From Escherichia coli (GTDB lineage Bacteria > Pseudomonadota > Gammaproteobacteria > Enterobacterales > Enterobacteriaceae), in assembly GCA_902500055.1 (NCBI GenBank), contig GCA_902500055.1_4131.1: a DNA stretch of 64,000 nt. One strand, written 5' to 3'. Every line of letters begins with the position of its first letter. Position 1 is the stretch's first letter. Shown in pieces: positions 38,858-54,305 of this stretch. Position numbers and translations under genes: made by a program. The notes under the pieces were generated by a model. It was not told where the DNA came from and did no database searches. It was given only the letters and a program-made list of their open reading frames with translations.

Positions 38858-38861
38858 ATAC

Positions 38862-40165: not shown

Positions 40166-40222
40166 TTTGTTTCCCCCGTGTTGGTATGTACATATAGTAC
40201 TAAAACATTTGAGTACTGTCAA

Positions 40223-40441
40223 TTAGATAATATTATATTTCTTTAAAGATAATGCGTCTTGGGTTGGCTGATACTCGATACCGTTCCCATTATTGACTTC
40301 AACTAATAAACCTTTGTCAATTAGTTTTTTAATAGTACGATACCCCTGTTGAAAATTGGTAAAATGTGAATCATTACGAAAGGTATAACCGTGCTTAACT
40401 GCTTCATCAATAGTTTTCTTTTCGATTTTAGATAATTTCAT
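40223..40441 (-). CDS. hypothetical small protein, possible DNA-binding
   Basis: Trimmed to Met20 (MKLSKIEKK...); shares leader sequence with the upstream gene. Confidence 0.45.
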   Translation of the reverse strand: MKLSKIEKKTIDEAVKHGYTFRNDSHFTNFQQGYRTIKKLIDKGLLVEVNNGNGIEYQPTQDALSLKKYNII

Positions 40442-40494
40442 TTTGTTTCTCCCGTGTTGGTATGTGTACATAATACTAAAACAATTGAGTACTG

Positions 40495-40749
40495 TCAACG
40501 TGATATTAGTTTTATTTTCTTATTATATTGTTGGTGTTCATATAGGTTTATTTTTCCTGTGTTCTCTATTACTATTCTGTTGTTAGTGTCCACATCGATT
40601 ACACGCAGTTTCCCGTTGCTTAACTTCCTTGGTAATAGGTTACCATTAATAAACTCATTAGCAAGCTGTACGGCCTTTGTGATGATTCTCTTCGGTGCTT
40701 TATAGTGTACCCGTAAGATGTTATCTTTATATAGTTGAACCTTAATCAT
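40495..40749 (-). CDS. hypothetical protein
   Basis: 84 aa. Confidence 0.5.
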   Translation of the reverse strand: MIKVQLYKDNILRVHYKAPKRIITKAVQLANEFINGNLLPRKLSNGKLRVIDVDTNNRIVIENTGKINLYEHQQYNKKIKLISR

Positions 40750-40810
40750 TTTGTTTGTCCTATAAAAAAGGCGGGATCAGTTCCCGCCGTGTTGTTAGTA
40801 CTGCAAGTTA

Positions 40811-41206
40811 TTAGATAACCTGGCGGCGTTTACTGTATACTGTTACACGATTACCCTTACGATCATGTCGGATCTCTTTCTGGTTGCGAATCAGTTCACT
40901 TGGACGCTTAAGGTTTGCCAGGTGATCCGCGTGAGTCCATGCGGTGTGGTTTACCTGTACTTTGATATCAGAATCAGCGATAAACTCATCTTGTGCGTCA
41001 AGTATTGCCGCCAGCATATCCGCTCGTTTTAGTTCTGCTGCTGTTAGTACTGGCTCAGGTGAATTCACAATATCAGAGATTTCTTTGAACTGTACGGCCC
41101 AGCGTTGACCTTTCGGTGCTGTCGTTCCCATGTCTTTAAATGCTGCTCCTTCCTCGCGTGCAACAATACGGGCAGCTTCACGGGTAGCGTAGAATTTAGT
41201 AATCAT
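40811..41206 (-). CDS. hypothetical protein, paralog of 52866..53132
   Basis: Start set to Met4 (MITKFYATREAARIV...) by alignment with MNIKYFATREQARIA; shared ...RKGNRVTVY tail. Confidence 0.55.
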   Translation of the reverse strand: MITKFYATREAARIVAREEGAAFKDMGTTAPKGQRWAVQFKEISDIVNSPEPVLTAAELKRADMLAAILDAQDEFIADSDIKVQVNHTAWTHADHLANLKRPSELIRNQKEIRHDRKGNRVTVYSKRRQVI

Positions 41207-41301
41207 GGTATACATCCTATTAGTTGAGTTAGTACTACAAGTTAGAGTCTATTATAAAGTACTATCTGGGCAATGTCAAATAGTACTTTAAATGGATTCT
41301 A

Positions 41302-41625
41302 TTACATGTCTTTCTTACGTTTTACATCGTAGTAGCGAACTGTTATTTCTTTGTTAATCTCTTTTTCGATGCGGTGAATAACTTTTTCTTTCGGGTTGAA
41401 ACCTATAACGGTTTCTTTAATGATCTCCAAACCAGTGTATTCGCCTTGCGTACCGTAACCGTATGTAAAGGTTTCGTGTCCCAGGTCTTCCCAGCGGTCG
41501 CCAATTAACGCAGACACGTAGCAAGAGTGGTAAGTATTGCCGTTCCGATCAGTCCAGCGATTAACTTTAATGTCAAAGGAGGTTACAATTTTCAATTCCA
41601 CTTTCTGGGTAAGGATCATAGCCAT
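41302..41625 (-). CDS. hypothetical protein, paralog of 47258..47602
   Basis: 107 aa; shared YGYG and C-terminal VKRKKD. Confidence 0.55.
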   Translation of the reverse strand: MAMILTQKVELKIVTSFDIKVNRWTDRNGNTYHSCYVSALIGDRWEDLGHETFTYGYGTQGEYTGLEIIKETVIGFNPKEKVIHRIEKEINKEITVRYYDVKRKKDM

Positions 41626-41712
41626 TTTTATTTCTCTCTCTTTGTTAGGAGGGGAACCATTTCCCCGCCTTGATGTAAACTATTATACAGTACTAAGATA
41701 CTTTGTCAATAC

Positions 41713-41988
41713 TTAAGTATTGTAAATGTCGTGAATAGTGATAAAGTTTTTACGCCCGTAAACCTGTAAATCGGTATTAATGTAATGCTTATCAAGTACA
41801 TCCTCGACGCTTAAAGCCGTGTCGTGAATATCTTCGTAGAATTGAGGATCTACAATCTTGCTTAAGTCATCCGGCGTTAACTTATCGTTAAGCCATTGAA
41901 CCGCCTGGATATCTGCATCACGTTTCCATTGTTCCAGGTTAGTAGTCAGTACTTGTTCGATTTCGTTAGCTGTCAGTAGAATCCGCAT
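41713..41988 (-). CDS. hypothetical protein
   Basis: 91 aa. Confidence 0.5.
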   Translation of the reverse strand: MRILLTANEIEQVLTTNLEQWKRDADIQAVQWLNDKLTPDDLSKIVDPQFYEDIHDTALSVEDVLDKHYINTDLQVYGRKNFITIHDIYNT

Positions 41989-42008
41989 TTTAATGTTTCC
42001 TTATCAGT

Positions 42009-42150
42009 GGTTGATGTAAGTATTATACTCGTTTACTTTCTATTGTCAAACTATTTTATCAGGGGAGTTTTTCGTATGTCTTACTCCTGGACTACTTAAC
42101 GGGGTTACTTGTTTCGTTCCCCGTCCTGATGTAAAACATTATACTTGATT
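42009..42150 (-). repeat. duplicated ~140-bp leader cassette, copy 1
   Basis: Near-identical to 52141..52282; contains two tandem promoters and hairpins CGGGGAACG..CCCCG and GGAGTAAG..CTCC. Confidence 0.55.
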
Positions 42151-42221
42151 CTAAGTACAATGCAAGTACTTTTTAAAAATAGTTTTCAGTACTTGATAGT
42201 ACTAGCCACCAGCAAACAATA

Positions 42222-42301
42222 GATACATTTATGCACCCGGTGGGCTAATTTGTTTCTATGCGTATATAATAGCAAAGGGACTGACCGGAGTCAATCCCTT
42301 T
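42222..42301 (+). repeat. conserved intergenic unit, copy 3
   Basis: GATACATTTATGCACCCGGTGGGCTAA ... AAAGGGACTGACCGGAGTCAATCCCTTTTT. Confidence 0.6.
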
Positions 42302-42312
42302 TTCAATTATTT

Positions 42313-42462
42313 TTAAACTTCTTTCGGGTTGCGATAGGTGATAGCGTTCGGGTACATTTGTTTAATGTTATTCCATGCCTGGTTAACATTATAACCACTT
42401 GAGCGAATCAGTTGGTTACTACCGACACCTTGAAACACTACTTCAAATAAGAATTCTTTCAT
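42313..42462 (-). CDS. small hypothetical protein (49 aa)
   Basis: Hand-translated MKEFLFEVVFQGVGSNQ...; ATGA-coupled to upstream gene. Confidence 0.35.
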   Translation of the reverse strand: MKEFLFEVVFQGVGSNQLIRSSGYNVNQAWNNIKQMYPNAITYRNPKEV

Positions 42463-42632
42463 GCTTTCACCTCGCTATCTGCTTTGCCTTTACGCCAGGC
42501 CGTTGCTAATTGTTCGCGTTGCCATAAGTCGAGTGATACGTAAAGTTTTGCATTATCACCCTTCGGATATTCGCCAGTAGTACCAATCCGATAAAACAGA
42601 TCTTTCAGTACTGTTAATTCTACCTGGACCAT
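42459..42632 (-). CDS. small hypothetical protein
   Basis: Track ORF trimmed to Met35 (MVQVELTVLKDLF...) downstream of the leader hairpin. Confidence 0.45.
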   Translation of the reverse strand: MVQVELTVLKDLFYRIGTTGEYPKGDNAKLYVSLDLWQREQLATAWRKGKADSEVKA

Positions 42633-42718
42633 TATACTTTCCTCTTTGTTAGGAGGGGAACTATTCCCCTTCCGATATAAAACATTATACACTTTATTCA
42701 GTACAGTGCAAGTACTTT

Positions 42719-42931
42719 TTAATCTTTCAGCCAATGATCCTGAATGAATTTTTCACCGAAACCTTGCTGCATTGATTGTAACAGACGTTCGCGATGAGCG
42801 GCGGCGAATTGCTCAGTACTATGCGTTACACCTGGTTGATATCTGGATTCACCATTGGGGGCGATGTATTGTACATCCCACGGTTTTTCGTTAGTATCAG
42901 ACCATTTACGAACGATTAGTTGACCTTGCAT
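42719..42931 (-). CDS. hypothetical protein
   Basis: 70 aa. Confidence 0.5.
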   Translation of the reverse strand: MQGQLIVRKWSDTNEKPWDVQYIAPNGESRYQPGVTHSTEQFAAAHRERLLQSMQQGFGEKFIQDHWLKD

Positions 42932-43017
42932 TTTTCTTTCCTCTTAGTGGGGAGAATCATTTTCTCCCCTTCATGTAACTTATTATACAGTACTATAATC
43001 TATTGTCCAGTACTTTT

Positions 43018-43206
43018 TTACAGTTTATGAATTAATTCTTTATCTAAGCGATAGCGTACATTATTAATGGTAACAGCATTATTTTTAATGCTACGCTGTA
43101 CGGGTCCACCAGCAATAACAAACGTTGCTTTATTGCCCCGAACAATGATAGCACTTCCAGGATTACCGAAATCATCTTGTACTAAAATACTTGATAAGTT
43201 TTCCAT
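43018..43206 (-). CDS. hypothetical protein
   Basis: 62 aa. Confidence 0.5.
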   Translation of the reverse strand: MENLSSILVQDDFGNPGSAIIVRGNKATFVIAGGPVQRSIKNNAVTINNVRYRLDKELIHKL

Positions 43207-43284
43207 TTTTATTTCCTCTTAGTAGGGGAAGATGTTTCCCCTTGATGCAAGTACTATAACAGTACTGAAAACTAAATGCAAGTA

Positions 43285-43641
43285 CTATGATAAAATCATG
43301 ATAGGATATTCACTATCTATCAATACCTCGAATCCGAAACCTTCGTACCATTCTTTAAGATTAAAGGCGTTATCTTCTCCCGTATCGCATTCTAAGATGA
43401 TACAATCTGAATCATCGGCGGCATCGATAAAGGCATTCATTAATTCGTTACCTTCACCATTGCCCCGACTATCAGGATCAACATAAAGAGAATCAATAAA
43501 CGCTACACGGTCATAATCAAGATCCGGTGCAATGATTCCACGTTTAACAAACCAGTACTGCAATTGTGCTACTTTGCCCTGTACCTGATAACCAGTGATC
43601 TCTCCATTGTCAGTAGTACGCGTGATATGTTGTATTCCCAT
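43285..43641 (-). CDS. GNAT-family N-acetyltransferase-like protein
   Basis: 118 aa; acetyl-CoA motif-A-like IDSLYVDPDSRGNGEGNELMNAFIDAA. Confidence 0.5.
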   Translation of the reverse strand: MGIQHITRTTDNGEITGYQVQGKVAQLQYWFVKRGIIAPDLDYDRVAFIDSLYVDPDSRGNGEGNELMNAFIDAADDSDCIILECDTGEDNAFNLKEWYEGFGFEVLIDSEYPIMILS

Positions 43642-43705
43642 GATTACTATCCTCAGTTAAGATATAAAACATTATACACTATCTTTCAGTACTGTCAATT
43701 ACTTT

Positions 43706-43963
43706 TTATCTCATAGATCTATGCCAACAATTACGCGGTTGACGTTTAAAAATACTATCATGATCCTCCTGGCAAGTTATGCAGTACTTACACCCCTTAA
43801 CGACCTGGCGGCGATTCTCAGGGATTTTATCGCCGCAGTCGAGGCAATGTATCAGTGATTCTATTTGTGCGTTAATTTGCGTTCTAGCGTGGTTAACAGC
43901 AGCCTGAATCACTGCGTTAATCTCGTCTTGTTCGGCCCCATCTTTCGCGAATCCTACAGCCAT
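43706..43963 (-). CDS. TraR/DksA-type C4 zinc-finger protein
   Basis: 85 aa; CLDCGDKIPENRRQVVKGCKYCITC (CxxC...CxxC). Confidence 0.5.
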   Translation of the reverse strand: MAVGFAKDGAEQDEINAVIQAAVNHARTQINAQIESLIHCLDCGDKIPENRRQVVKGCKYCITCQEDHDSIFKRQPRNCWHRSMR

Positions 43964-44164
43964 TATTTTAACCTCATTATAAAAATACTATAGTACTGTA
44001 ATGCGACAATAATATTACTTGTTCTTACTTTTTCCAATCCACATGATACCACATATTCATTACCATATGTGCGGAACGATACACCATGAAAATTTTTATA
44101 CACTTGCACTACTAATCATAACCTTTCGTCTAACCAACTGCATAGAATTATACTACTTTACGCA

Positions 44165-44205
44165 AATTGATCAAGTATTGATCAGATCATTTTTGATCAA
44201 TATTA
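44165..44205 (-). promoter_or_regulatory. cluster of TTGATCA palindromes (4 GATC sites in ~40 bp) in a leader
   Basis: AAATTGATCAAGTATTGATCAGATCATTTTTGATCAATATT. Confidence 0.4.
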
Positions 44206-44293
44206 TACAGTTACATTTGTGCACCCTATGGGTTAGTGACGTTCTCGTCTTGATGTAAGTATTATGCCAGTACTGGATGATATTGTCAATAGA

Positions 44294-44491
44294 TTATTTT
44301 AATTTTTTTCTGTCATTGATTAATGCTTTCAGTACTATACTAATGATTTGCAATGATTCATCAATGACTATAAAATTATTTTCTTTCATTAGATGATAGT
44401 TACCATTGATTGTATATTCTAAGGAGTACTGTTTACGTTTAATTTTTGATAATGTTTCTATTTGTTTTTGTACTGATTTCATGCTAATCAT
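44294..44491 (-). CDS. hypothetical protein
   Basis: 65 aa. Confidence 0.45.
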   Translation of the reverse strand: MISMKSVQKQIETLSKIKRKQYSLEYTINGNYHLMKENNFIVIDESLQIISIVLKALINDRKKLK

Positions 44492-44596
44492 TGGTAAACG
44501 TCCTGTAACGCATTCTAACGAGATAAACGGTTGAGTACTGGCATTGTATAGGGTAATGAATTAAAGCCCACCAGCGTTAACCAGTGGGCTATAATC

Positions 44597-44740
44597 TTAC
44601 ATCTTGCGGATAATCTTAACAGTATCTTTCACCGATTTACCGTTTTGCTGACATTGCTCGATCATCGCGTATTGTTCTGCGGTCAGATCCTCGCCAGTTT
44701 TTGCCAGTACTGCGTCGATGAATGAATCCAGTGCGATCAT
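44597..44740 (-). CDS. small hypothetical protein (47 aa)
   Basis: Hand-translated MIALDSFIDAVLAKTGEDLTAEQ...; promoter and leader upstream. Confidence 0.35.
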   Translation of the reverse strand: MIALDSFIDAVLAKTGEDLTAEQYAMIEQCQQNGKSVKDTVKIIRKM

Positions 44741-44832
44741 TTTGTTTCTCTCTCTTAGGTTAAGTTAACTACTGTTTATAAAACTTATTATACAGTACTA
44801 TCAAACGTTGTCAATAGTACTGGTAATATATT

Positions 44833-45045
44833 TTAATTGATGATGGTTAATGTAAAGTTATAATCCCCTGCCTGGTATAGTACTTTATCGCCGAACGTGC
44901 CGACACGTTTCATATTGCAATAGATACCCATAACACTTTTTACATCTTTGATATTCCGAACGCCCGTAATATCCTTGTTTAAATGATCGTGATCAGAAAA
45001 TAAAACTTGTTTTGCATTTTTCAGTACAGTGCAGATATTAGCCAT
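44833..45045 (-). CDS. hypothetical protein
   Basis: 70 aa. Confidence 0.5.
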   Translation of the reverse strand: MANICTVLKNAKQVLFSDHDHLNKDITGVRNIKDVKSVMGIYCNMKRVGTFGDKVLYQAGDYNFTLTIIN

Positions 45046-45141
45046 TTTGTTTTCTCTCTCTGTTAGTGGGGAGAAGTTTTTCTCCCCTTGATGTAAACTA
45101 TTATACAGTACTATAATCTATTGTCAAACTATTTTTTTATA

Positions 45142-45483
45142 TTATTCGAAATCTTCTGGACCGGACTGATAATCATCTTCACCGTATGCACTTTCTAACT
45201 TCTCGCCAGTGTGATCATCAGTTAGTGAATCATCCTCATAATTCACGTCTACGCCTACAATGTAAAACTGGCTATCGTCTGGATCATTGAAATTAATTTT
45301 CTGAATGTTTACAATAACTGTATTGATGCCCAGGACACAGCCATCAGCCGTTACAAAGTACTGATATTTTTCACAACCGCCTGAATTGAAACCGTAATTA
45401 ATTTCGGCCCGACCATCATTTAAACGCAGTGCCTGGGCGATGATTTCATTTTCAAAGTTAGATTGAGCAATTGAGATAGTCAT
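45142..45483 (-). CDS. hypothetical protein with acidic C-terminus
   Basis: 113 aa; C-terminal ...ESAYGEDDYQSGPEDFE. Confidence 0.5.
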   Translation of the reverse strand: MTISIAQSNFENEIIAQALRLNDGRAEINYGFNSGGCEKYQYFVTADGCVLGINTVIVNIQKINFNDPDDSQFYIVGVDVNYEDDSLTDDHTGEKLESAYGEDDYQSGPEDFE

Positions 45484-45606
45484 GATTTGTTTCCTTATTA
45501 CCAGGGGAAACCGTTTCCCCTTTCGATGTAAAACATTATACGCTTATTGAGATAGTTTGCAAGTACTTTTTAAAAATAGTTTTCAGTACTCAATACTTAT
45601 ATAATA

Positions 45607-45692
45607 GATACACTTATGCACCCGGTGGGCTAGTGAGCTATCTCTCAATGAATATATAATAGCAAAATGGCTGACCGAAGTCAACCACTTTT
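45607..45692 (+). repeat. conserved intergenic unit, copy 4 (degenerate hairpin)
   Basis: GATACACTTATGCACCCGGTGGGCTAGTGAG ... AAAATGGCTGACCGAAGTCAACCACTTTTTT. Confidence 0.55.
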
Positions 45693-45697
45693 TTCAT

Positions 45698-45832
45698 TTA
45701 TTTTTTAGCTTTCAGTACTGCCGCCTTTCGCGTCATGCCTTGCTTAATGTACTCCTTTACTTTCGCTTTACGTGCTTTCGCTTTATCTGCTTTCGTTTTA
45801 GGAGTACTGTAAATTAAACCGTTAGGATTCAT
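45698..45832 (-). CDS. small basic protein (44 aa)
   Basis: Hand-translated MNPNGLIYSTPKTKADKAKARKAK...; TAAATG junction with upstream peptide. Confidence 0.35.
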   Translation of the reverse strand: MNPNGLIYSTPKTKADKAKARKAKVKEYIKQGMTRKAAVLKAKK

Positions 45833-45922
45833 TTAAATCACCATAAAGAATAGATAGGTTACTAACAATGCCGCGATCAATGCACCGATCACCGCTGAAC
45901 TGTAATAAGCTAATGATTTCAT
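45833..45922 (-). CDS. small hydrophobic peptide (29 aa), probable single TM helix
   Basis: Hand-translated MKSLAYYSSAVIGALIAALLVTYLFFMVI; ATGA-coupled to upstream gene. Confidence 0.35.
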   Translation of the reverse strand: MKSLAYYSSAVIGALIAALLVTYLFFMVI

Positions 45923-46071
45923 TTTTTAGCCTGAAAATAATGTTTAATTTGAGCGGCGGTCAGTGCACAATTACGCAGGAAGTTTTCTGTATAACTTTTG
46001 CGAGTACTGAAAGAGAATTGACCTTTGCCGTTACCGATAGTAACATCAAACCGAGCGTTGTATTGTTTCAT
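45919..46071 (-). CDS. small hypothetical protein (50 aa)
   Basis: Track ORF trimmed to Met11 (MKQYNARFDVTIGNGKGQ...). Confidence 0.4.
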   Translation of the reverse strand: MKQYNARFDVTIGNGKGQFSFSTRKSYTENFLRNCALTAAQIKHYFQAKK

Positions 46072-46152
46072 TTTGTTTCTCCTGTTATTGGGGAGAATCA
46101 TTTCTCCCCTTCATGTAAACTATTATACAGTACTAAAAACTAATTGCAAGTA

Positions 46153-46299
46153 CTATTTTTTAGATTTACGCAAACTTTCTACCATCTCAGGAGTAAGGCC
46201 CGGCGGGTAGGAAACTACTTCATCAACGAAACGTAAAGGGAATACCCCAGCGAAAGGTGAACGTGCTTTCTTAGTATTACTCTTTTTTGATGCTTTCAT
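46153..46299 (-). CDS. small basic protein (48 aa)
   Basis: Hand-translated MKASKKSNTKKARSPFAGVF...; leader hairpin GGGGAGAATCATTTCTCCCC upstream. Confidence 0.4.
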   Translation of the reverse strand: MKASKKSNTKKARSPFAGVFPLRFVDEVVSYPPGLTPEMVESLRKSKK

Positions 46300-46368
46300 T
46301 TCATATTCCTTAATTAGTGGGGAGAATCATTTCTCCCCTTCATGTAAAACATTATACGCGTTTAAAAA

Positions 46369-46578
46369 CTAATTGCAAGTACTATTTGAAAGTAAATGCT
46401 CATACGCTGCATTAACTACGTTTTCAATAACCGACTGTACAGAAAGATCCCCCACGTCCTGGCTATAGTAGAAATCGCTTACAGTGGTGTCATCGTATGC
46501 AAATACTTTACCAGGTACGGCATCAATCACATACATATTAACCTTTAAGATGTCGATCTTATCCTGTACAGTAAGCAT
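46369..46578 (-). CDS. hypothetical protein
   Basis: 69 aa. Confidence 0.5.
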   Translation of the reverse strand: MLTVQDKIDILKVNMYVIDAVPGKVFAYDDTTVSDFYYSQDVGDLSVQSVIENVVNAAYEHLLSNSTCN

Positions 46579-46583
46579 ATTAA

Positions 46584-46856
46584 TTAACCTTTTAAGTACT
46601 GGCTTAAGTAGTCTTGTTGATCTTCGGTGATTGCAGCCATCTTCCCTAGTACTGGATTGATGATATAATCCCCTGTAACGTCCTGTAACGCATTCTCAGG
46701 CGGTTTAACGGCTGGGGTAGCCATAGCCATTGCCTGGACTTGTTCGACGCTGTAACGCTCATATAGGCGGCATTCTTCCGGTGTTAACATAGCATCAGTA
46801 CGCTTCATCGGTTTAATGATGCTTTCGATCTCATTCAGTACTTGATTAACGTTCAT
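46584..46856 (-). CDS. hypothetical protein
   Basis: 90 aa. Confidence 0.5.
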   Translation of the reverse strand: MNVNQVLNEIESIIKPMKRTDAMLTPEECRLYERYSVEQVQAMAMATPAVKPPENALQDVTGDYIINPVLGKMAAITEDQQDYLSQYLKG

Positions 46857-46907
46857 GGTATAATCCCCAATATAAGCGGCCTGAATCGACCGCTAACGAT
46901 GTTTTGA

Positions 46908-47177
46908 TTAATAGGTGTATGGTTGACGCTCAAACAATGATTGCACGTTGTACGCCCCGCTTATGGGCTTCGCTGGTAAATCAATTTTATATTGTTCACG
47001 CTTAAAGATAATAAAACGGCAATTGTTTTTAACATCAAAATTGATTGAACGTTCCAGGAGTTTACCATCGTGCACAAATACAAGATAACCGCTTGGTACT
47101 TGTTTTGTAGTACTGGTTGCAACCATAGACCGCCGAACATGTGTACCTGCATCGATTAAAGTACTGATATTTTTCAT
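46908..47177 (-). CDS. hypothetical protein
   Basis: 89 aa. Confidence 0.5.
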   Translation of the reverse strand: MKNISTLIDAGTHVRRSMVATSTTKQVPSGYLVFVHDGKLLERSINFDVKNNCRFIIFKREQYKIDLPAKPISGAYNVQSLFERQPYTY

Positions 47178-47257
47178 TATACGATCCTCTTAAGTTAATT
47201 TAATTTCTTTCCCCTATGCAGACACTATATCAAAGTATCTGCATAAAGTAAAGCTAA

Positions 47258-47602
47258 TTAAAGATCTTTTTTGCGTTTAACATCAGTTACCGAACTGTAA
47301 ACAGTGATATTATTGTCACGGCAAAAACGGGAAAGATAAGAACCGCGTAAAAACTCTTTATCTTCCATATTAATAACCTTGCTAAATTCTTCCATTGCTA
47401 CAGTGTCAAAGTGATCCCCGTATCCATATTGGAACGGCACGTTTACTACTTCAATAAAATTACCATCAATTTCTACGTCTACACTTAAAGAGAAATAAGT
47501 GTTACCATATGAAGCCTGGAACCAACGCCGAGCGGCAATATGTACAACTTCAACAGAAGACAGGTTGATATTTTGTTTTGCGATAGTGTTGATATTAGCC
47601 AT
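47258..47602 (-). CDS. hypothetical protein, paralog of 41302..41625
   Basis: 114 aa; shared YGYG and VKRKKD tail. Confidence 0.55.
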   Translation of the reverse strand: MANINTIAKQNINLSSVEVVHIAARRWFQASYGNTYFSLSVDVEIDGNFIEVVNVPFQYGYGDHFDTVAMEEFSKVINMEDKEFLRGSYLSRFCRDNNITVYSSVTDVKRKKDL

Positions 47603-47683
47603 TTTAATTTCCTCTTAGTTGTCTTGATAAAATCTATTATGCCAGTACTATCAAACTATGTCAATAGTACTGTGATAATATTT

Positions 47684-47896
47684 TTACTTACTTTCTTTCG
47701 CTGCTTTGTGCGTTGCCACTGCCATAACCACATCAGCACGAACAAAGTTTTTTACCGTGTCAGTGTAGTAATTGATTGCATCGTCAACATCTGTAAAAAT
47801 CCGATACATGCCGCACCACGATACTTTATAACCTTCTTTCACTTCTTCCAGCTTAACCAGTGATTTGTTTACTTTGATTTTTGTGATGATAGCCAT
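47684..47896 (-). CDS. hypothetical protein
   Basis: 70 aa; promoter TTGACA-17-CATAAT upstream, duplicated at 47620 and 47920. Confidence 0.5.
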   Translation of the reverse strand: MAIITKIKVNKSLVKLEEVKEGYKVSWCGMYRIFTDVDDAINYYTDTVKNFVRADVVMAVATHKAAKESK

Positions 47897-47980
47897 TATT
47901 GTTTCCTCTTAGTTGTCTTGATAAAATCTATTATGCCAGTACTATCAAACTATGTCAATAGTACTGTGATAATATTTTTA

Positions 47981-48121
47981 CTTACTTTTTGCTTTCTTTG
48001 CTGCTTCCACCTGGTCGGCCCACTCTTTACCCCATACCTGAGCGTTATAGTGATACTGACAAAGAGCAACGCCCCGCTTTAAACCAGTAATAGATTTCTG
48101 ACCACATTGACAAGTTTTCAT
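47981..48121 (-). CDS. small Cys-containing protein (46 aa), possible zinc ribbon
   Basis: Hand-translated MKTCQCGQKSITGLKRGVALCQYHY...; leader hairpin upstream. Confidence 0.35.
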
Positions 48122-48207
48122 TTTAGTTTCCTTGTAGTGGGGAGAACCATTTTCTCCCCTTGATGTAATGTATTATACTTTATTCGATTTACTTTGCAAG
48201 TACTTTT

Positions 48208-48435
48208 TTAATTTAATTCATCAAGGCAAAGGATACGCTCAACGCCCAAATCAGTTAAACTAATCGACGGCACTTGATAGGTTTCAATGTATGCTACACT
48301 TGCCCACTGACCGAACTCATTAACGGCCCAGGTATTCATTGCATTTTGCAATTCCGCACCTTCCTTGTTGGTAATGACTGCAACTACTTGTTCGTTGCCA
48401 GTAGTACCAGATACGCGAGTAATGATAATAGCCAT
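48208..48435 (-). CDS. hypothetical protein
   Basis: Track ORF trimmed to Met20 (MAIIITRVSG...). Confidence 0.5.
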   Translation of the reverse strand: MAIIITRVSGTTGNEQVVAVITNKEGAELQNAMNTWAVNEFGQWASVAYIETYQVPSISLTDLGVERILCLDELN

Positions 48436-48549
48436 TGTTTTGATTCCTTTGATTTGGAAGGAGAACCGTTTCCCCCTCTCGATGTAAAACATTATACGCT
48501 AATCTCTTAATCGTGCAAGTACTTTTTATTACTTTTTGCAAAATACTTT

Positions 48550-48650
48550 AAACGCACTCAATCGCATTCTAACGACTTTAACGCCACCAGCTAGGGCAAT
48601 GCATCAGATAAACAGTTTAATACGTTAGAATCGTTTCTAGGCGGTGCTGG
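48550..48650 (-). other. interleaved inverted repeats (A-B-A'-B')
   Basis: CGCATTCTAACG ... GCCACCAGC ... CGTTAGAATCG ... GCTGGTGGC. Confidence 0.4.
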
Positions 48651-48672
48651 TGGCCTGGTAAACGATAAACAC

Positions 48673-48698
48673 AAAAAAGCCCACTGTATAAGTGGGCT
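48673..48698 (-). terminator. intrinsic terminator after 48720..49202
   Basis: Hairpin AGCCCACTTATACAGTGGGCT followed by T-run on minus sense. Confidence 0.55.
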
Positions 48699-48719
48699 AA
48701 TGATTCAGTACTTTAATTG

Positions 48720-49202
48720 TTATGCTTCAACTTTGCGATGAGCTTCGATCCATTCCTCGCGAGTCATACCACTGGAGTTAATCGCATCCAGTACTACCGC
48801 AATGCAGTTACCACGCACCGGAATCAGATATTCTTCCCCGTTATCAAGTACTACCGCTACACGTTCTTGAATCCATTTTTTAGCTTTTACTTCTGGCTTA
48901 TCTTCACCGTACTTTTTCGCCAGGGCTTTTTGTGCCATCTCTGTAACTACTTCCAGATCCAATCCAACTACTGCCGCCTGAATACTTTCAATTGTTGCTT
49001 GTAGTTCTGCTTCACGGGCCGCCTTTGCCGCTTCAATTTCTGCCGCTTTATTTGCTTGTAGTTCTTTCGCAGTACTGTAAGCGATGTTAAAATTATTGCG
49101 TACCGCTTTCATGGTATCGTTATCCAGTTCAGCCAGGATCTCAGCCGCGACGTTAGTTTCATTTGCTACCAGTGCTTTGATGAATGATTTTACATTAGCC
49201 AT
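48720..49202 (-). CDS. Ala/Glu-rich coiled-coil protein, hypothetical
   Basis: Trimmed to Met6 (MANVKSF...) after GAGGA; central KAAEIEAAKAAREAELQATIESIQAA. Confidence 0.5.
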   Translation of the reverse strand: MANVKSFIKALVANETNVAAEILAELDNDTMKAVRNNFNIAYSTAKELQANKAAEIEAAKAAREAELQATIESIQAAVVGLDLEVVTEMAQKALAKKYGEDKPEVKAKKWIQERVAVVLDNGEEYLIPVRGNCIAVVLDAINSSGMTREEWIEAHRKVEA

Positions 49203-49408
49203 TTTATAAATCCTCAATTAAAGTTTAGTTTACGTTTATTAGTGTATCAAAGTTTTCTCGACGTGTCCAGTTTTTCGTTCGACTTACTGGCGGTCTACTT
49301 AGTGCTCCCCGTCTTGATGTAATACATTCTACGCTTTTCTGCGGTAATGTCAACTACTTTCTTAAAACTATTTTCAAAGTATCTCAGTACTACGATACTA
49401 CAAAAACA

Positions 49409-49430
49409 AAAAAAGCCCACCAGGTGGGCT
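49409..49430 (-). terminator. intrinsic terminator after 49437..49667
   Basis: Hairpin AGCCCACCTGGTGGGCT followed by T-run on minus sense. Confidence 0.5.
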
Positions 49431-49436
49431 ATGTAC

Positions 49437-49667
49437 TTAATCAGTGAGTAAAATATTAAACACTTTACCATTTAACGTTATTGGTGCACTGCTACCAGGC
49501 TCAAGATCCGTTAATATACCTGCAATCGCTTTATCATTGGCGACCTTTCCAGTGTCCAACAGTACTACAGTACTGATAAGATTAACGCTCGTTTCAATAT
49601 CATAATGCACGGCGTTAAGTAGTTGTGTAGTACTGCTTTCGTTAAGTAAAACAATTCGCTTAGTCAT
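49437..49667 (-). CDS. hypothetical protein
   Basis: 76 aa. Confidence 0.5.
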   Translation of the reverse strand: MTKRIVLLNESSTTQLLNAVHYDIETSVNLISTVVLLDTGKVANDKAIAGILTDLEPGSSAPITLNGKVFNILLTD

Positions 49668-49688
49668 GATGTTACCCCGTAGTATCTA

Positions 49689-49988
49689 TCAACGGCAATT
49701 AATAACGCCGGTATGCGTTACTTTCTCAGTATCCATTACAGTGACCGAACCGCGTTTAGTACTGGCATCATAATAAATTGTCGTGCTACCGTTTTCGTCT
49801 TCTTCATGGAACGGGCCGTTTTTAAATGCTTCCGGCTGAATCTCCAGATCCTTTAATACAATCTCGCCAGTACTTTCATCGGTCATTGCAACAGTGCACT
49901 GAATGAATTTTTCACTACTTACATCTAATGACGCATTAACAGCGAAAGAGGAAACAGATAAAGCCAGGGCGATGATTGTAATTTTCAT
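49689..49988 (-). CDS. secreted or periplasmic small protein
   Basis: 99 aa; N-terminal signal peptide MKITIIALALSVSSFAVNA with AxA-type cleavage site. Confidence 0.5.
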   Translation of the reverse strand: MKITIIALALSVSSFAVNASLDVSSEKFIQCTVAMTDESTGEIVLKDLEIQPEAFKNGPFHEEDENGSTTIYYDASTKRGSVTVMDTEKVTHTGVINCR

Positions 49989-50072
49989 TTGATTATCCTT
50001 AGTTACCAGGGGGAACCGCTCCCCCTTGCGATGTAAAATATTATACAGTACTAAAAACTATTATCAAGTACT

Positions 50073-50309
50073 TTATGATTTTTTATAAAACATTTCAGCA
50101 GTGATATTTTTACCCGTTGGCTGTACTTTATCCAGAATTTTTTGATGCCCTGGTCGTCCAAAGGAATATGATCCGTAAACAGTAAACCAGTAGTTGCCAT
50201 CAGTGTTTACATGTACAGCACAATAGGGTACGCCCCGCGATTCATCACTAGTAAAGTGTGCTACCGTTCCCGTTACATTCGAAGTCGTTGATTTGATTTG
50301 TTCAAGCAT
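50073..50309 (-). CDS. hypothetical protein
   Basis: 78 aa. Confidence 0.5.
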   Translation of the reverse strand: MLEQIKSTTSNVTGTVAHFTSDESRGVPYCAVHVNTDGNYWFTVYGSYSFGRPGHQKILDKVQPTGKNITAEMFYKKS

Positions 50310-50418
50310 TTTATTATTCCTTAGTTACCAGGGGGAACCGCTCCCCCTATGCAAAACATTATACGCGTTTAAAAACTAATTGCAAGTATTTTAATAAAAA
50401 GTATTTGAAAAATAGTTG

Positions 50419-50447
50419 TTGACAAGTGCATCCAGTACTGGCATAAT
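50419..50447 (+). promoter_or_regulatory. plus-strand sigma70-like promoter, divergent from early genes
   Basis: TTGACA-17 nt (CCAGTACTG)-CATAAT on the plus strand. Confidence 0.45.
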
Positions 50448-50448
50448 T

Positions 50449-50562
50449 ACTACATCAAGACGAAACAGTCACTAACCCACCGGGTGCCGAGATCCGTCTA
50501 TTAAATGATTCAGTACTGAAAAAGTAACGGGGAGTTATTATCTCCCCGCGTTGTTATTTTGT
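50449..50562 (+). ncRNA. candidate short plus-strand transcript
   Basis: Runs from the promoter at 50419 to hairpin CGGGGAGTTATTATCTCCCCG plus T-rich tract; contains CCCACCGGGTGC box; no ORF. Confidence 0.25.
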
Positions 50563-50775
50563 AAGGTATAAACAGAAGTCGCCTTTATTTGCTACGCCGC
50601 CAGTGTAACGCGATGAATAGTTAGAAACGTCCTGGACTTCTGCTATTACCAGGGTATCATCATTCAATTCGTCGCAGAAGCAAACGGCTGGATCTTGTAC
50701 GCCGATTTTGTCGGCATGTTCCCGCATAGATTTCACCAGTGCTTCCAGTTGGGAAAGAGTAGTGATATTAGCCAT
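50554..50775 (-). CDS. hypothetical protein
   Basis: Track ORF trimmed to Met11 (MANITTLSQ...). Confidence 0.5.
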   Translation of the reverse strand: MANITTLSQLEALVKSMREHADKIGVQDPAVCFCDELNDDTLVIAEVQDVSNYSSRYTGGVANKGDFCLYLTK

Positions 50776-50863
50776 TTTATTTTCCTCATTACCAGGGAGA
50801 ACCATTTCTCCCTTTGATGTAAACCATTATACAGTACTGAAAACTAATTGCAAGTACTTTTTT

Positions 50864-51124
50864 TCAGTATTGTTTATCGTCGTCTTCCTCGATGAATTGA
50901 CCGACGAAATGATCTACTTTCGCTTTGAGGCTTTTATAATCTTCTTCTACTTCCGTTAAACGTTCCTGGTAGTATTCCAGTGCCTCAAGATACGCCGCCT
51001 CAGCAGTTTTTGCACGCATAGCTAAATTCATTCCACGCGTTTCATCATAAAGCCAATAACCATCGGTGCACTGGCTAATAGATAATGACTTGCTTAGTGC
51101 TGTATAGCTAATTACTTTACTCAT
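50864..51124 (-). CDS. hypothetical protein
   Basis: 86 aa. Confidence 0.5.
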   Translation of the reverse strand: MSKVISYTALSKSLSISQCTDGYWLYDETRGMNLAMRAKTAEAAYLEALEYYQERLTEVEEDYKSLKAKVDHFVGQFIEEDDDKQY

Positions 51125-51181
51125 TAGATAACCCTCAGTAAAGGCGGGAACTATTACCCGCCATTATCTCAGTACTGAATA

Positions 51182-51421
51182 TTACATTCCAACCATTGCA
51201 GCACGGATCGCCGTAGTGCTATACTTGAATCCGTCCGGCGTTGTAGTAGTACCGTTGGCTTTTAATCTGCGGTACATACATTCCGCAGCAATATCTTTCG
51301 TTTTACTTTGTGCGATGCAATTTTGAGCAATCCGGTATAATGATTCATCGTTATTGATCCAAAGGCTTACATTCCAATGAGTTTTGTTTTTGTGCCCGTT
51401 GTAAGTTTTAGTACTAGCCAT
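51182..51421 (-). CDS. hypothetical protein, paralog of 53221..53460
   Basis: Trimmed to Met11 (MASTKTYNGHKNKTHWNVSLWINNDE...); shared C-terminal PDGFKYSTTAIRAAMVGM. Confidence 0.55.
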   Translation of the reverse strand: MASTKTYNGHKNKTHWNVSLWINNDESLYRIAQNCIAQSKTKDIAAECMYRRLKANGTTTTPDGFKYSTTAIRAAMVGM

Positions 51422-51511
51422 TTTTAAATCCTCGTTTGAGCGGGGAACCACTCCCCGCCTTGATGTAAAGTATTATACGCTTTTAAACTTAGTTTACAAG
51501 TACTTTTTAAA

Positions 51512-52120
51512 TTAATATTCGATTGATTCCACTACGCCATCAATAACATTGAATTGATATTCGTTACCCTCAATCAGTGCAGTAATGTTTTCAGTAGTGA
51601 ATTGATCCTCATATGCATTCTCTAAATCACGGTACAACTTACGAGATAATTCACGGATCGCATCAGTCAGTAAGTTTTCCAGATCCTCAGCCAATGCCGC
51701 CTGTTTTACAGTTAAATCAGTGTAGCGAGTATCAACGCAACCGCCTACCGTGTTTTCGTGTGCGTAGCGTGATTGGAAACGTTCTACACTCATTTCTAAA
51801 TCATCCTCGTTCAACAGGTGACGGATTGAACGATATTTCGTTAACGCCTTAACCTTGCGTAAAAACTTCTCAGCGTCAACGTGGTTAGTACTGATTGATG
51901 CACCGTCACCTTGCGACCAAAAACCACTGTATTGCAATTCAGCTTCATCTATGCCGTATTCTGGTAGTACTGTTTCTTTATAGTACTCGATAACGCCCTC
52001 AGCAAAGAAATTATCCTCACATGAACGCTCACGATCCCGAACCAGTTCAATAGCCGCCGTTTTTTGTTCTGCGTTCAGTTCAGAAAAAGCCATAACAAAA
52101 GTAGTAGTGATAGTTTTCAT
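51512..52120 (-). CDS. hypothetical protein
   Basis: 202 aa; motif SGFWSQGDGAS; preceded by duplicated leader cassette. Confidence 0.55.
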   Translation of the reverse strand: MKTITTTFVMAFSELNAEQKTAAIELVRDRERSCEDNFFAEGVIEYYKETVLPEYGIDEAELQYSGFWSQGDGASISTNHVDAEKFLRKVKALTKYRSIRHLLNEDDLEMSVERFQSRYAHENTVGGCVDTRYTDLTVKQAALAEDLENLLTDAIRELSRKLYRDLENAYEDQFTTENITALIEGNEYQFNVIDGVVESIEY

Positions 52121-52140
52121 TTTGTAACCCTCATTCAGTA

Positions 52141-52282
52141 GTTGATGTAAGTATTATACGCTTTTACTTTCTATTGTCAAACTATTTTATCAGGGGAGTT
52201 TTTCGTGTGCCTTACTCCTGGGCTACTTAACGGGAAGTTACTTATTTCGTTCCCCGTCCTGATGTAAAACATTATACGCCTT
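52141..52282 (-). repeat. duplicated ~140-bp leader cassette, copy 2
   Basis: Near-identical to 42009..42150. Confidence 0.55.
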
Positions 52283-52344
52283 TAAACATAGTTTACAAGT
52301 ACTTTTTAAAAATAGTTTTCAGTACTGAATATTAAAAAAAAGTA

Positions 52345-52373
52345 TTGACAGCATTATCAAGTACTGGCATAAT
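52345..52373 (+). promoter_or_regulatory. plus-strand sigma70-like promoter
   Basis: TTGACA-17 nt-CATAAT, followed by CCCACCGGGTGC box. Confidence 0.4.
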
Positions 52374-52547
52374 ATACCCCATGACAACAGCTAACCCACC
52401 GGGTGCACAATTGTAACTATACTAAACTAATTTTTCTATAGATACACTCCCGCACCCTATGGGCTACGGCTTATCTGCCAATGAATACATTATGCCAGTA
52501 CTGACAAAATAAGTCAATACCGGCAATTGTAAAGATTTGTAAACTGC

Positions 52548-52784
52548 TTATACTGCAATCGCGTCCAGGCTGTAATAATAATAAGTGCCGTATTGGTGTA
52601 CTTTATTACCTTTTATTTCAGTACTGAATGAATCCGAACGGTTTGCATATGATGTTAATTTAAAGTACTTTGATTTGCTGATACGTTGCCATACACCACA
52701 GATCCGCTGTAAGTAAGTAGTTTTATTCGTGGTAGTATCTTTTACGGTTTTAACTTCAGTCATATACATATTAGTCATTTTCAT
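52548..52784 (-). CDS. hypothetical protein
   Basis: 78 aa. Confidence 0.45.
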   Translation of the reverse strand: MKMTNMYMTEVKTVKDTTTNKTTYLQRICGVWQRISKSKYFKLTSYANRSDSFSTEIKGNKVHQYGTYYYYSLDAIAV

Positions 52785-52865
52785 TACTCCAGGTTATAGG
52801 CGGGAAGAGTTCCCGCTCTCGATGTAAAACATTATACGCTTTTATCAGTACGGTGCAAGTACTTT

Positions 52866-53132
52866 TTATTCAAGTACTGCAATCTTTTTAGTACGGTACA
52901 CGGTCACGCGGTTGCCCTTTCGGTCGAGCTTTATTTCTACCACTCGACGCGATACACTATCGGGACTTTTTAAGGCCGCTAACCAGTACTGTAATGATCT
53001 GGCCGTACTACGCTTTACAATGGCCCAACGTTCACCACTTGCCGATCCCGCTCCCATATCTTTAAACGTTGCCCCGTCCTGGCGTGCGGCGATCCGAGCT
53101 TGTTCACGCGTCGCAAAATACTTAATATTCAT
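52866..53132 (-). CDS. hypothetical protein, paralog of 40811..41206
   Basis: Trimmed to MNIKYFATREQARIA... Confidence 0.55.
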   Translation of the reverse strand: MNIKYFATREQARIAARQDGATFKDMGAGSASGERWAIVKRSTARSLQYWLAALKSPDSVSRRVVEIKLDRKGNRVTVYRTKKIAVLE

Positions 53133-53220
53133 GTTGTTGCCCTTATCGTTGGTGTATGAATAAAACACTATTATAAAGTACTATCCCCGTGCAATAGTAC
53201 TTTAAATAAATTCTATTCTA

Positions 53221-53460
53221 TTACATTCCAACCATAGCCGCACGGATCGCAGTAGTGCTATATTTGAATCCGTCCGGTGTTTTATCTTGTCCAGTCTGTT
53301 CTAAAAATAACATCATATGACGGGCCGCATCATTGCGATTAGTATTGGCGGCAATAAAGTCCAGGGCCAACCGATACAATCCCTCATCGTTATTAATCCA
53401 CAGGCTTACATTCCAATGAGTTTTGTTTTTGTGACCTAAGAACATTTTTGATTTAGCCAT
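53221..53460 (-). CDS. hypothetical protein, paralog of 51182..51421
   Basis: Trimmed to Met14 (MAKSKMFLGHKNKTHWNVSLWINNDE...). Confidence 0.55.
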   Translation of the reverse strand: MAKSKMFLGHKNKTHWNVSLWINNDEGLYRLALDFIAANTNRNDAARHMMLFLEQTGQDKTPDGFKYSTTAIRAAMVGM

Positions 53461-53552
53461 TTTTTTAATCCTCTTATATAGTGGGGAACTATTCCCCACC
53501 TGATGTAAAACATTATACGCTTTTATTCAGTACTGTCAAACTAATTTTTAAC

Positions 53553-53915
53553 TTATTCGTAAATTTTGCCACTGTCAGCCCATACCAGGAAACGAGGCAT
53601 ATTATCCCATGCATCTTGTTTTAAATTTAAACCGTGTAATACTTCTGTACTTTCCATTCCTGGTACTGGTTTACTATACACCGCGAAATTTTCGCCCATA
53701 TACTGATAAACCATCGTCAAATCACTGGCGATCATCTTATGGATCATCGCATCAAGCATCACGGTGGCGGCGTATTGTTCACGCTTAAGCGGCAGCATTT
53801 TAATCAGTTCGCGGTATGCGTCAATGTGAGTTTTAACCGTTGCCGCCGGAAGATCTTTCATATCGTCGCGGAAGTTAACCAGGTTAGCAATGATTTTAGT
53901 GATTTGAGTCGCCAT
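53553..53915 (-). CDS. hypothetical protein
   Basis: 120 aa; first gene of the early-like cluster. Confidence 0.55.
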   Translation of the reverse strand: MATQITKIIANLVNFRDDMKDLPAATVKTHIDAYRELIKMLPLKREQYAATVMLDAMIHKMIASDLTMVYQYMGENFAVYSKPVPGMESTEVLHGLNLKQDAWDNMPRFLVWADSGKIYE

Positions 53916-54028
53916 CGTTTTAATCTCTTAAAAGTGAGTAGGGAAGTGTTCCCGCTCTCGATGTAAAACATTATACGCTTTTTTCAGTACTGTGCAAGTA
54001 CTTTCTACAAATACTTTTAAAATAGTTT

Positions 54029-54125
54029 TCTTTCTATATAGGGGAACTATTATTCAGTACTGAATCAATCCAGGGGAACTATCTTTCTATATAGGAGTAC
54101 TATTATTCAGTACTGAATCAATCCA
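54029..54125 (+). repeat. two ~43-bp direct repeats
   Basis: TCTTTCTATATAGGGGAACTATTATTCAGTACTGAATCAATCCA repeated with 2 mismatches. Confidence 0.6.
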
Positions 54126-54277
54126 CTAAATCATCCCTATACCCCGTAAAACGGCCTCAGACGCATTCTAACGCATTAATACACCTAAGCTATACATTTG
54201 CACCATTCTAATCATTCCAGGGCTTTACGGGCCGTTTAAACGCGTTAAATTATTTTCAATTATTTTGTTTTTAGGTA

Positions 54278-54305
54278 TTGACTTGATCCTGAAAAAGCGT
54301 ATAAT
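54278..54305 (+). promoter_or_regulatory. plus-strand sigma70-like promoter
   Basis: TTGACT-16 nt-TATAAT. Confidence 0.4.

Follow-up and report, generated by a model that had tools for sequence, protein, structure and literature searches.

Three gene pairs in the terminal-repeat early region of an Asteriusvirus jumbo coliphage: apparent single-gene units with different histories

The terminal-repeat block and its gene pairs

The DNA analysed here is a stretch of 64,000 nucleotides (nt) listed under Escherichia coli (the window; contig GCA_902500055.1_4131.1 of assembly GCA_902500055.1), and the subject is a set of three pairs of paralogous small genes, A, B and C, that lie between positions 40,811 and 53,460, together with the promoter-hairpin cassettes found upstream of small genes in the same block. 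On sequence comparison the three pairs read as single-gene units with different histories, namely a duplication (A), a replacement (B) and the retention of old subfamilies (C).

When the 40–54 kb portion of the window was compared with GenBank phages by megablast, the best matches were the Asteriusvirus jumbo coliphages JP4, WPEC5, Ecwhy_1, phAPEC6, G17, PBECO4 and 121Q at ~92–95% identity, and the window is accordingly assigned to an Asteriusvirus (PBECO4/121Q-like) jumbo coliphage of the Rak2-like group. The highest coverage of the query by a single relative was 59%, and the block is therefore mosaic within Asteriusvirus. Between 36 and 54 kb all real genes are short, minus-strand genes. The G17 record starts within this early block, and the first 21,525 bp of vB_Ec-M-J are annotated as 'Direct Terminal Repeats'; mapped from these two records, the direct terminal repeat would occupy ~35.05–55.7 kb of the window (~20.6 kb), in agreement with the terminal redundancy of ~20 kb reported for G17 (PMC6563267) and the 22.5-kb repeat of phage CBB (PMC5259590). 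The guanine-plus-cytosine (GC) content is 0.37–0.40 within the repeat versus 0.30–0.33 on both flanks, a value nearer to the ~39% reported for phAPEC8/phi92-type phages than to its own flanks.

All-versus-all BLASTP of every open reading frame (ORF) in the window of at least 40 amino acids (aa) returned A, B and C as the only real paralogous protein pairs in 38–54 kb, the other matches in the block being plus-strand pseudo-ORFs that translate repeated intergenic sequence. The original prediction, made from the letters of this stretch, had named the same pairs (40811/52866, 41302/47258 and 51182/53221) as paralogous; this is borne out, and the motifs it quoted are present in the alignments of the respective pairs. 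By ORF coordinates, A1 (40811–41215) and A2 (52866–53168) are 35% identical over 124 columns with a 45-residue gap (E = 4e-19), B1 (41302–41625) and B2 (47258–47602) 30% over 109 columns (E = 4e-10), and C1 (51182–51451) and C2 (53221–53499) 65% over 80 columns (E = 1e-37). Protein similarity is thus significant in all pairs, and similarity of the DNA, with flanks included, was found in A (66% over 219 nt, 41096–41314 versus 53022–53228) and C (71% over 360 nt including the upstream cassette) only; none was detectable inside the ORF between B1 and B2. Each pair falls into one PHROG family, and the likely true starts are internal ATG codons for A1 (41206), A2 (53132), C1 (51421) and C2 (53460), which match the annotation of PBECO4 and phAPEC6. 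The six genes are as follows.

40811–41206, minus strand: A1, 131 aa, phrog_8127; apparently the ancestral long copy, syntenic with the single RaK2 copy gp182
52866–53132, minus strand: A2, 88 aa, phrog_8127; apparently a derived short copy that lacks the ~45-aa central linker
41302–41625, minus strand: B1, 107 aa, phrog_6246; Asteriusvirus-specific
47258–47602, minus strand: B2, 114 aa, phrog_6246; apparent xenologous replacement in a dimorphic slot
51182–51421, minus strand: C1, 79 aa, DUF7249/phrog_871; a separate deep branch in the family tree
53221–53460, minus strand: C2, 79 aa, DUF7249/phrog_871; nested among proteins of ~135–155-kb coliphages

Along the minus strand the genes run C2-A2 ... 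C1 ... B2 ... B1-A1, with B1 adjoining A1, C2 adjoining A2, and B2 and C1 solitary; no two pairs are colinear. Beyond each gene and its own promoter or leader, the flanks match solely through the generic cassette. Because the gene order is non-colinear and the flanking match is limited to the cassette, no segmental (multi-gene) duplication took place, and the 'segmental paralogy' of the original prediction fails on these grounds and on the unequal divergence of the pairs. As all six genes were also found in 121Q, PBECO4 and phAPEC6, no event specific to this genome is involved. An assembly artefact arising from a collapsed terminal repeat was considered and rejected, since the copies are 30–65% identical and each copy was matched by an orthologue of its own in all the relatives examined.

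The six proteins gave little indication of function: Pfam returned only DUF7249, for pair C, and PHROGs only families without an assigned function. Searches of NCBIfam, PADLOC and PDB sequences gave no match for the pair proteins, and structure models for families B and C with a predicted local distance difference test (pLDDT) score of 86–87 yielded only weak, generic fold matches. Early expression would be expected from the position in the terminal repeat, the host-type promoters and transcription inward from the genome end, and the proteins probably play a role in host take-over or anti-defence.

Histories of the three pairs

Pair A has the appearance of a genuine in-lineage duplication of promoter plus gene, dating from after the split from RaK2-like phages. 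Family A was confined to Rak2-like jumbo phages, with two copies in Asteriusviruses (four where the record holds both terminal repeats) and one each in RaK2, K64-1, Muenster and Hallingskeid. The RaK2 copy is flanked by homologues of 41713–41988 and 40495–40749, which is the position of A1, and in a neighbour-joining tree without support values the A1 and A2 proteins from four Asteriusviruses cluster together, apart from those of RaK2 and Hallingskeid and from related metagenomic proteins. The DNA match between A1 and A2 takes in the 5′ half of the gene and its promoter region and reaches the stop codon of the gene upstream. The regulatory features of the pair are listed below.

41251–41279, minus strand: predicted σ70 promoter of A1, TTGACA-17-TATAAT, 12/12 consensus positions, no hairpin; inside 41096–41314
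40770–40788, minus strand: predicted intrinsic terminator after A1, GGCGGGAACTGATCCCGCC then TTTTTT, from a terminator scan and direct reading
53133–53228, minus strand: leader of A2, homologous to the A1 promoter region; TATAAT kept (53175–53170), −35 box eroded

The G17 annotation marks a terminator at the site equivalent to that after A1. A 5-nt deletion in the A2 leader has cut the promoter spacer to 13 nt, so that A2 is probably read from the C2 promoter rather than from its own and is no longer independently transcribed. Promoter and gene would thus have been duplicated together in the Asteriusvirus lineage after the RaK2-like split, with the central linker of A2 deleted later.

The two B genes, by comparison of their relatives, look like two very old members of one family (197 phage records), with the ORF body in the second slot exchanged for a version from the phi92/Justusliebigvirus pool. 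At ≥92% identity B1 was found in Asteriusvirus-type jumbo phage records only, these being 36 of the 37 matching records (tblastn). B2 is 100% identical in phAPEC6, ~95% in UE-S1 and 77–83% in ~130 Justusliebigvirus, Phapecoctavirus and phi92-type phages, while the same slot in PBECO4, 121Q and most other Asteriusviruses holds a different family member that is 34% identical to B2. The B copies are therefore not each other's closest relatives, B2 being ~80% identical to phi92-type proteins versus 30% to B1. In a three-way DNA alignment, the promoter and leader of B2, as well as everything from the last ~22 nt of its ORF onward, were nearly identical to PBECO4, and the ORF body was ~79–90% identical to Justusliebigvirus muut with no match to PBECO4. 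Since the flanks are PBECO4-like and the ORF body is muut-like, the crossovers would fall within the leader at one end and the conserved DVKRKKDL codons at the other. B2 can hence be described as a horizontally exchanged replacement with ORF precision, in a slot whose occupant varies from genome to genome. The elements around it are given here.

47590–47694, minus strand: promoter-leader of B2, copy 1 of a 105-nt repeat, 95% identical to 47884–47988; repeat family D11
47664–47636, minus strand: predicted B2 promoter, TTGACA-17-CATAAT with an upstream TG
47884–47988, minus strand: copy 2 of the 105-nt repeat, which with copy 1 brackets the gene 47684–47896

PBECO4 has the bracketed gene; in phAPEC6 the gene is missing and the 105-nt repeat is present once.

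Pair C belongs to a family of much wider distribution. The Pfam domain DUF7249 (PF23907) was found in C1 at 52.8 bits and in C2 at 43.8 bits (gathering cut-off 27) and is carried by all 120 listed homologues; more than 700 homologues were found, and the 307 phage records include rV5-like, phi92-like, T7-like, Ralstonia, Vibrio and Synechococcus phages. C2 is 81–92% identical to rV5/phi92/T7-like proteins on ~135–155-kb coliphage contigs, versus 65% to C1, and in other Asteriusviruses the C2 allele is a different one, grouping with other proteins from ~140-kb phages. On this evidence C1 and C2 are best described as old DUF7249 subfamilies and not as in-lineage paralogues, the C2 clade being common to rV5/phi92/T7-like coliphages and the 3′ ends of the two genes appearing partly homogenised.

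At the DNA level C1 and C2 are a mosaic in which codons 9–26 and the last 20 codons are ~93–94% identical and the middle third is near random. The number of identical synonymous codons was compared with that expected from local codon usage. In the 5′ block, synonymous-codon identity exceeded expectation in the C1/C2, C2/muut and C1/muut comparisons (p = 0.0003–0.005). In the 3′ block, an excess was found in C1/C2 only (12 of 17 versus 6.2 expected, p = 0.003), the comparisons with muut giving p > 0.7, which suggests gene conversion, or a younger shared origin, of this block within the Asteriusvirus genome. A separate observation concerns the DNA for the N-terminal DUF7249 motif GHKNKTHWNVSLWINND (51345–51422 and 53384–53435), which is conserved at synonymous sites across unrelated phages; short matches to it at 96–98% were found in phiWec181 and a Serratia phage, a degree of conservation beyond the prediction from codon bias (p = 0.0003–0.005).

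Promoter-hairpin cassettes and exchange junctions

The element that recurs between the genes of the block is a promoter-hairpin cassette. Repeat finding gave a family of at least 26 copies, whose layout on the coding strand is a −35 box (AAGTACTTGCA or TTGACA), a spacer of 16–17 nt, GTATAAT, GTTTTACATC, a GC hairpin, a Shine-Dalgarno sequence and ATG, with an AT-rich stretch lying upstream of the σ70 promoter. A covariance model of 93 positions, built from the cassette alignment, identified 31 copies of ~93 nt, all on the minus strand within 35880–54003, the remaining ~43 kb of the window being free of them. The copies lie upstream of small ORFans in a plastic region, most gene units of the early block starting with one, and a generic scan found twelve σ70 promoters with 12/12 consensus positions, as well as many with 10–11/12, all on the coding strand. 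The copies that concern the gene pairs, together with the module discussed below, are as follows.

35880–54003, minus strand: span that holds all 31 cassettes, within the terminal repeat/early block
41624–41714, minus strand: cassette before B1; covariance model 77.6 bits, hairpin ΔG −13.8 kcal/mol
51414–51505, minus strand: cassette before C1; covariance model 80 bits, hairpin ΔG −15.2 kcal/mol
53453–53546, minus strand: cassette before C2; covariance model 70.5 bits, TTGACA-16-TATAAT, 12/12
41637–42144, minus strand: module shared with Justusliebigvirus muut, comprising the gene 41713–41988 and both flanking cassettes

Hairpins folded in all 24 of the 24 copies tested, with stems of 7–9 bp and ΔG from −8.4 to −16.0 kcal/mol, and the stem sequences vary among copies yet stay complementary. 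As the hairpin of this main class follows the −10 box (on its 3′ side) and has no U-run, a classical terminator role is doubtful, and it is more likely to act as a 5′ stabiliser of the mRNA or as an attenuator. Elsewhere the covariance model matched muut (76 and 60 bits), RaK2 (62 bits) and Erwinia phage Hallingskeid (48 bits), and with a single 92-nt copy as query, matches came from 71 phage records (662 places in all), the majority of them Rak2-like jumbo phages from six host genera. An Rfam scan of 35–56 kb gave no family matching the cassette; the sole match in that interval, Trp_leader, was rejected as chance (27.9 bits versus a threshold of 41).

Two further promoter types occur in the block. 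A1, A2 and B2 have a second, hairpin-less type flanked by AGTACT motifs. The third is present in four copies (36513–36540, 39268–39295, 42274–42301 and 45664–45691) and consists of a hairpin with a 12-bp stem, AAAGGGATTGACTCCGGTCAGTCCCTTT, which overlaps a −35 box of sequence TTGACT and precedes TATTAT; read on the opposite strand, the same element has a hairpin followed by a T-run and so resembles a terminator for antisense transcripts. In addition, an intergenic element of ~200 nt occurs in two copies that are 86–90% identical (42000–42201 and 52115–52335) and also in muut (L003 4940–5086); it contains a long hairpin (GGACGGGGAACGAA...CCCCGT) and tandem promoters and matched no Rfam family.

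The relation between cassettes and exchange was examined by aligning eight related loci with the block at ≥85% identity, excluding alignment ends that were due to the ends of the fetched loci and taking the covariance-model hits as cassettes. Of 55 distinct breakpoints, 23 fell in cassettes, which cover 14.3% of the DNA (p = 6e-7). The enrichment also holds within non-coding DNA, where 23 of 35 breakpoints were in cassettes versus 40% expected (p = 0.002). Where neighbouring high-scoring segment pairs (HSPs) overlapped, the overlap lay wholly within one cassette in 14 of 18 cases, and in these the relative has 174–438 nt extra, corresponding to one small gene between two cassette copies. For example, the cassette before B1 is the point of HSP overlap in PBECO4, WPEC5, G17 and vB_Ec-M-J, and at the cassette before C2 there are 256 nt extra between two copies in PBECO4 and vB_Ec-M-J. 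Similarly, the gene 38373–38777 (134 aa), which is found in G17 and absent from PBECO4 and phAPEC6, sits exactly between the cassettes 38280–38372 and 38773–38863.

Exchange across phage groups is indicated by the module shared with muut, which is 93% identical in nucleotides over 514 nt, with similarity that stops inside the cassettes. Its gene, 41713–41988, is 96% identical in amino acids to muut_139, and in muut the 514-nt module is located between that phage's B and C genes. This points to a fairly recent exchange of the gene between unrelated virulent coliphages. More broadly, more than 170 rV5/phi92-type phages share discrete terminal-repeat genes with the block at ≥80% DNA identity.

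Some other features of the block and its surroundings were recorded. Few genes of the block have annotations in relatives; they are 39307–39948, 43285–43641 and 43706–43963, the annotations being 'protein kinase domain-containing protein' (for the 213-aa ORF under the ph0011 match), GNAT acetyltransferase and DksA-like zinc-finger protein. Adjoining the outer boundary of the terminal repeat is a non-coding stretch of 1.9 kb (54000–55900) that contains degenerate 8-bp tandem repeats resembling CGTCTAGC at 54749–54900 and that could be tied to the genome end or to packaging. Outside the repeat, the all-versus-all BLASTP found larger families of tandem paralogues at 29000–35000, 15700–19150, 19150–20400 and 55900–60100, comprising ~25 ORFs of 60–90 aa, a family of 146–164 aa, a family of 119–172 aa and a run of 60–80-aa ORFs.

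Competing explanations and known systems

The reading that we favour, with a probability of roughly 0.7, is that the six genes are independent single-gene early units exchanged at repeated cassettes and that the three pairs are products of this process at different times. The homology, the distribution of copies, the junctions and the enrichment of breakpoints are observed directly; recombination at the cassettes as the mechanism is what we infer. In the proposed mechanism, host RNA polymerase would read the cassette promoters immediately on DNA entry, and the hairpin at the 5′ end of each mRNA would serve as a stabiliser, an attenuator or both. The ~30 cassette copies, which have counterparts in other Rak2-like phages and in Justusliebigvirus, would provide short patches of homology, and recombination at these patches could insert, delete, duplicate or replace whole genes while leaving expression unbroken. 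The short conserved codon blocks at the ORF ends may have acted as additional crossover points.

Several points weigh against this reading or limit its reach. A1, A2 and B2 have the hairpin-less promoter, so that the main cassette is not the direct flank of three of the six genes, and with 20 of the 55 breakpoints in coding DNA the cassettes are not the sole crossover sites. Part of the enrichment could stem from weaker constraint on intergenic DNA or from BLAST alignments that end in repeats, and the excess of identical codons in pair C could come in part from translational constraint near the 5′ end and not from recombination. The best match to B2 outside Asteriusvirus is only ~83% identical, so that the donor is unsampled or the event old, and the transfer of B2 and C2 may have run in either direction. 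The trees are neighbour-joining trees of 79–131-aa proteins and carry no support values.

Among the alternatives, the one that survives best is that the cassette is purely regulatory and that ordinary homologous or illegitimate recombination occurs anywhere, the pile-up of breakpoints then reflecting tolerant intergenic DNA and BLAST alignments truncated at repeats. It is consistent with the coding breakpoints just mentioned, with the 3′ junction of B2, which lies in conserved codons and not in a cassette, and with the expectation that σ70 consensus elements should look alike in any coliphage. We nevertheless consider it rather improbable, because the enrichment holds when only non-coding DNA is counted, because the arrangement seen in most HSP overlaps (one cassette copy here, an extra small gene in the relative) is the footprint of repeat exchange, and because the similarity between cassettes extends well beyond two hexamers, as in the matches of 60–76 bits in muut.

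The original prediction held that the cluster had been built by module duplication and shuffling, consistent with a duplicated leader cassette; in its full form, all three pairs would have arisen by duplication of modules or segments within the lineage, followed by shuffling and by divergence in place. The duplicated leader cassette is real, both as the 105-nt repeat and as the cassettes found by the covariance model, and the unit of change does appear to be a module equipped with its own promoter, with the leader cassette involved in the shuffling; duplication as the builder of the cluster fits pair A only. The model can also draw on the position of all six genes within 13 kb of one repeat-rich block, on the DNA identity of pair C, leader included, and on the 3′ block of that pair, which looks homogenised within the genome. 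It is unlikely, given that the copies are non-colinear with flanking similarity that ends at the cassette, that B2 is far closer to its Justusliebigvirus/Phapecoctavirus relatives than to B1 or to the PBECO4 gene in the same slot and yet has PBECO4-like flanks, and that C2 is closer to proteins of unrelated coliphages than to C1. The opposite view, that there was no duplication and that every copy was separately acquired from a coliphage early-gene pool, with likeness due to common family membership, would suit the wide spread of families B and C outside Asteriusvirus and the terminal-repeat genes shared with rV5/phi92-type phages, and is the least probable of all, because family A is restricted to Rak2-like phages, with one copy in RaK2-type phages and two in Asteriusviruses, and because A1 and A2 group together and share non-coding promoter DNA.

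Exchange of single-gene units at cassettes, if it took place as proposed, would offer a concrete route by which early genes could turn over rapidly, and these genes are where host take-over and anti-defence functions are most likely to be found. More speculatively, the cassette might be a shared 'adaptor' by which unrelated virulent coliphages trade ready-to-express early genes during co-infection, with the terminal repeat as an integron-like collection site; the partners may include jumbo Rak2-like phages, the phi92/Justusliebigvirus group and the rV5-like group. This idea is tentative, and we regard it as possible and somewhat doubtful. Were it true, the conserved codon blocks at the ORF ends would also let the variable middle of a protein be swapped, allowing rapid diversification of host-interaction or anti-defence proteins. 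On the present evidence the same cassette links the Rak2-like jumbo phages to an unrelated phage subfamily, and the covariance model is a simple means of finding such units. The pairs also illustrate that 'paralogues' seen in a single phage genome can conceal duplication, xenologous replacement and retained old subfamilies.

The closest known system is the promoter-early stem-loop (PeSL) of T4-type phages (Arbiol et al. 2010, PMC2839356; Comeau et al. 2014, PMC4122927). A PeSL consists of a strong σ70 promoter, a GGGG...CCCC stem-loop, a Shine-Dalgarno sequence and ATG, is conserved over ~100 bp and occurs in hyperplastic regions, where PeSLs have been shown to mediate the insertion, deletion and replacement of ORFans, including by way of mini-circles (PMC2839356, PMC4122927). 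The cassette described here shows every sequence-level feature of the PeSL definition: it is a repeated element of ~100 bp made up of a consensus σ70 promoter with AT-rich DNA upstream, a stem-loop in which a G-run pairs with a C-run, and the Shine-Dalgarno sequence and start codon of the downstream gene, and it is concentrated among small ORFans at the junctions of insertions, deletions and replacements between close relatives. The stem-loop of the AAAGGGATTGACTCCGGTCAGTCCCTTT element overlaps the −35 box, as in a subclass of PeSLs. In contrast to PeSLs, however, whose definition comes from T4-like (Tevenvirinae-type) genomes, the genome here is that of a Rak2-like Asteriusvirus and not T4-like; copies of the element occur only within the long terminal repeat, the hairpin of the main class falls in the predicted 5′ leader and lacks a U-run, and an unrelated subfamily (Justusliebigvirus) has the cassette as well. 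Mini-circles and promoter and terminator activity have been demonstrated for PeSLs, whereas the comparison here is one of sequence features.

The morons of lambdoid phages are independent promoter-gene-terminator units whose insertion is generally attributed to illegitimate recombination with no conserved flanks. Morons are also discussed in the PeSL literature (PMC2839356). A1 resembles a moron in being self-contained, with its own consensus promoter at 41251–41279 and intrinsic terminator at 40770–40788. The units of the block differ from morons in that conserved flanks appear to guide their exchange and in that most have no terminator of their own. In T5-like phages, the pre-early (first-step-transfer) genes lie in a long terminal repeat. 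The block is similar in having a long direct terminal repeat with small genes and host-type promoters, transcribed inward from the genome end, and in both cases these are plausibly the earliest genes to be expressed, with a part in host take-over. The likeness is one of layout, and no stepwise entry of the DNA is known in Asteriusvirus.

Phage CBB (Buttimer et al. 2017, PMC5259590) belongs to the same jumbo supergroup and has a terminal repeat of ~22 kb full of short hypothetical ORFs, with RpoD-like promoters that carry a UP-like element in the early region and 22 ORFs noted as paralogues (PMC5259590). That paper lists paralogues and promoters but contains no promoter-hairpin cassette, junction analysis, cross-family exchange or any of the present pairs. 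Likewise, the rV5 paper lists σ70 promoters without the cassette, and the searchable literature holds no mention of PeSLs in Rak2-like, rV5 or phi92 phages, nor of DUF7249 or PHROG 871, 6246 or 8127. Seen beside these systems, the case is one of ordinary but clean phage mosaicism, with a mechanism known from T4-type phages, and not a new kind of system; cassette-guided shuffling, which the searchable literature describes in T4-like phages only, would thereby extend to the terminal-repeat early region of Rak2-like phages.

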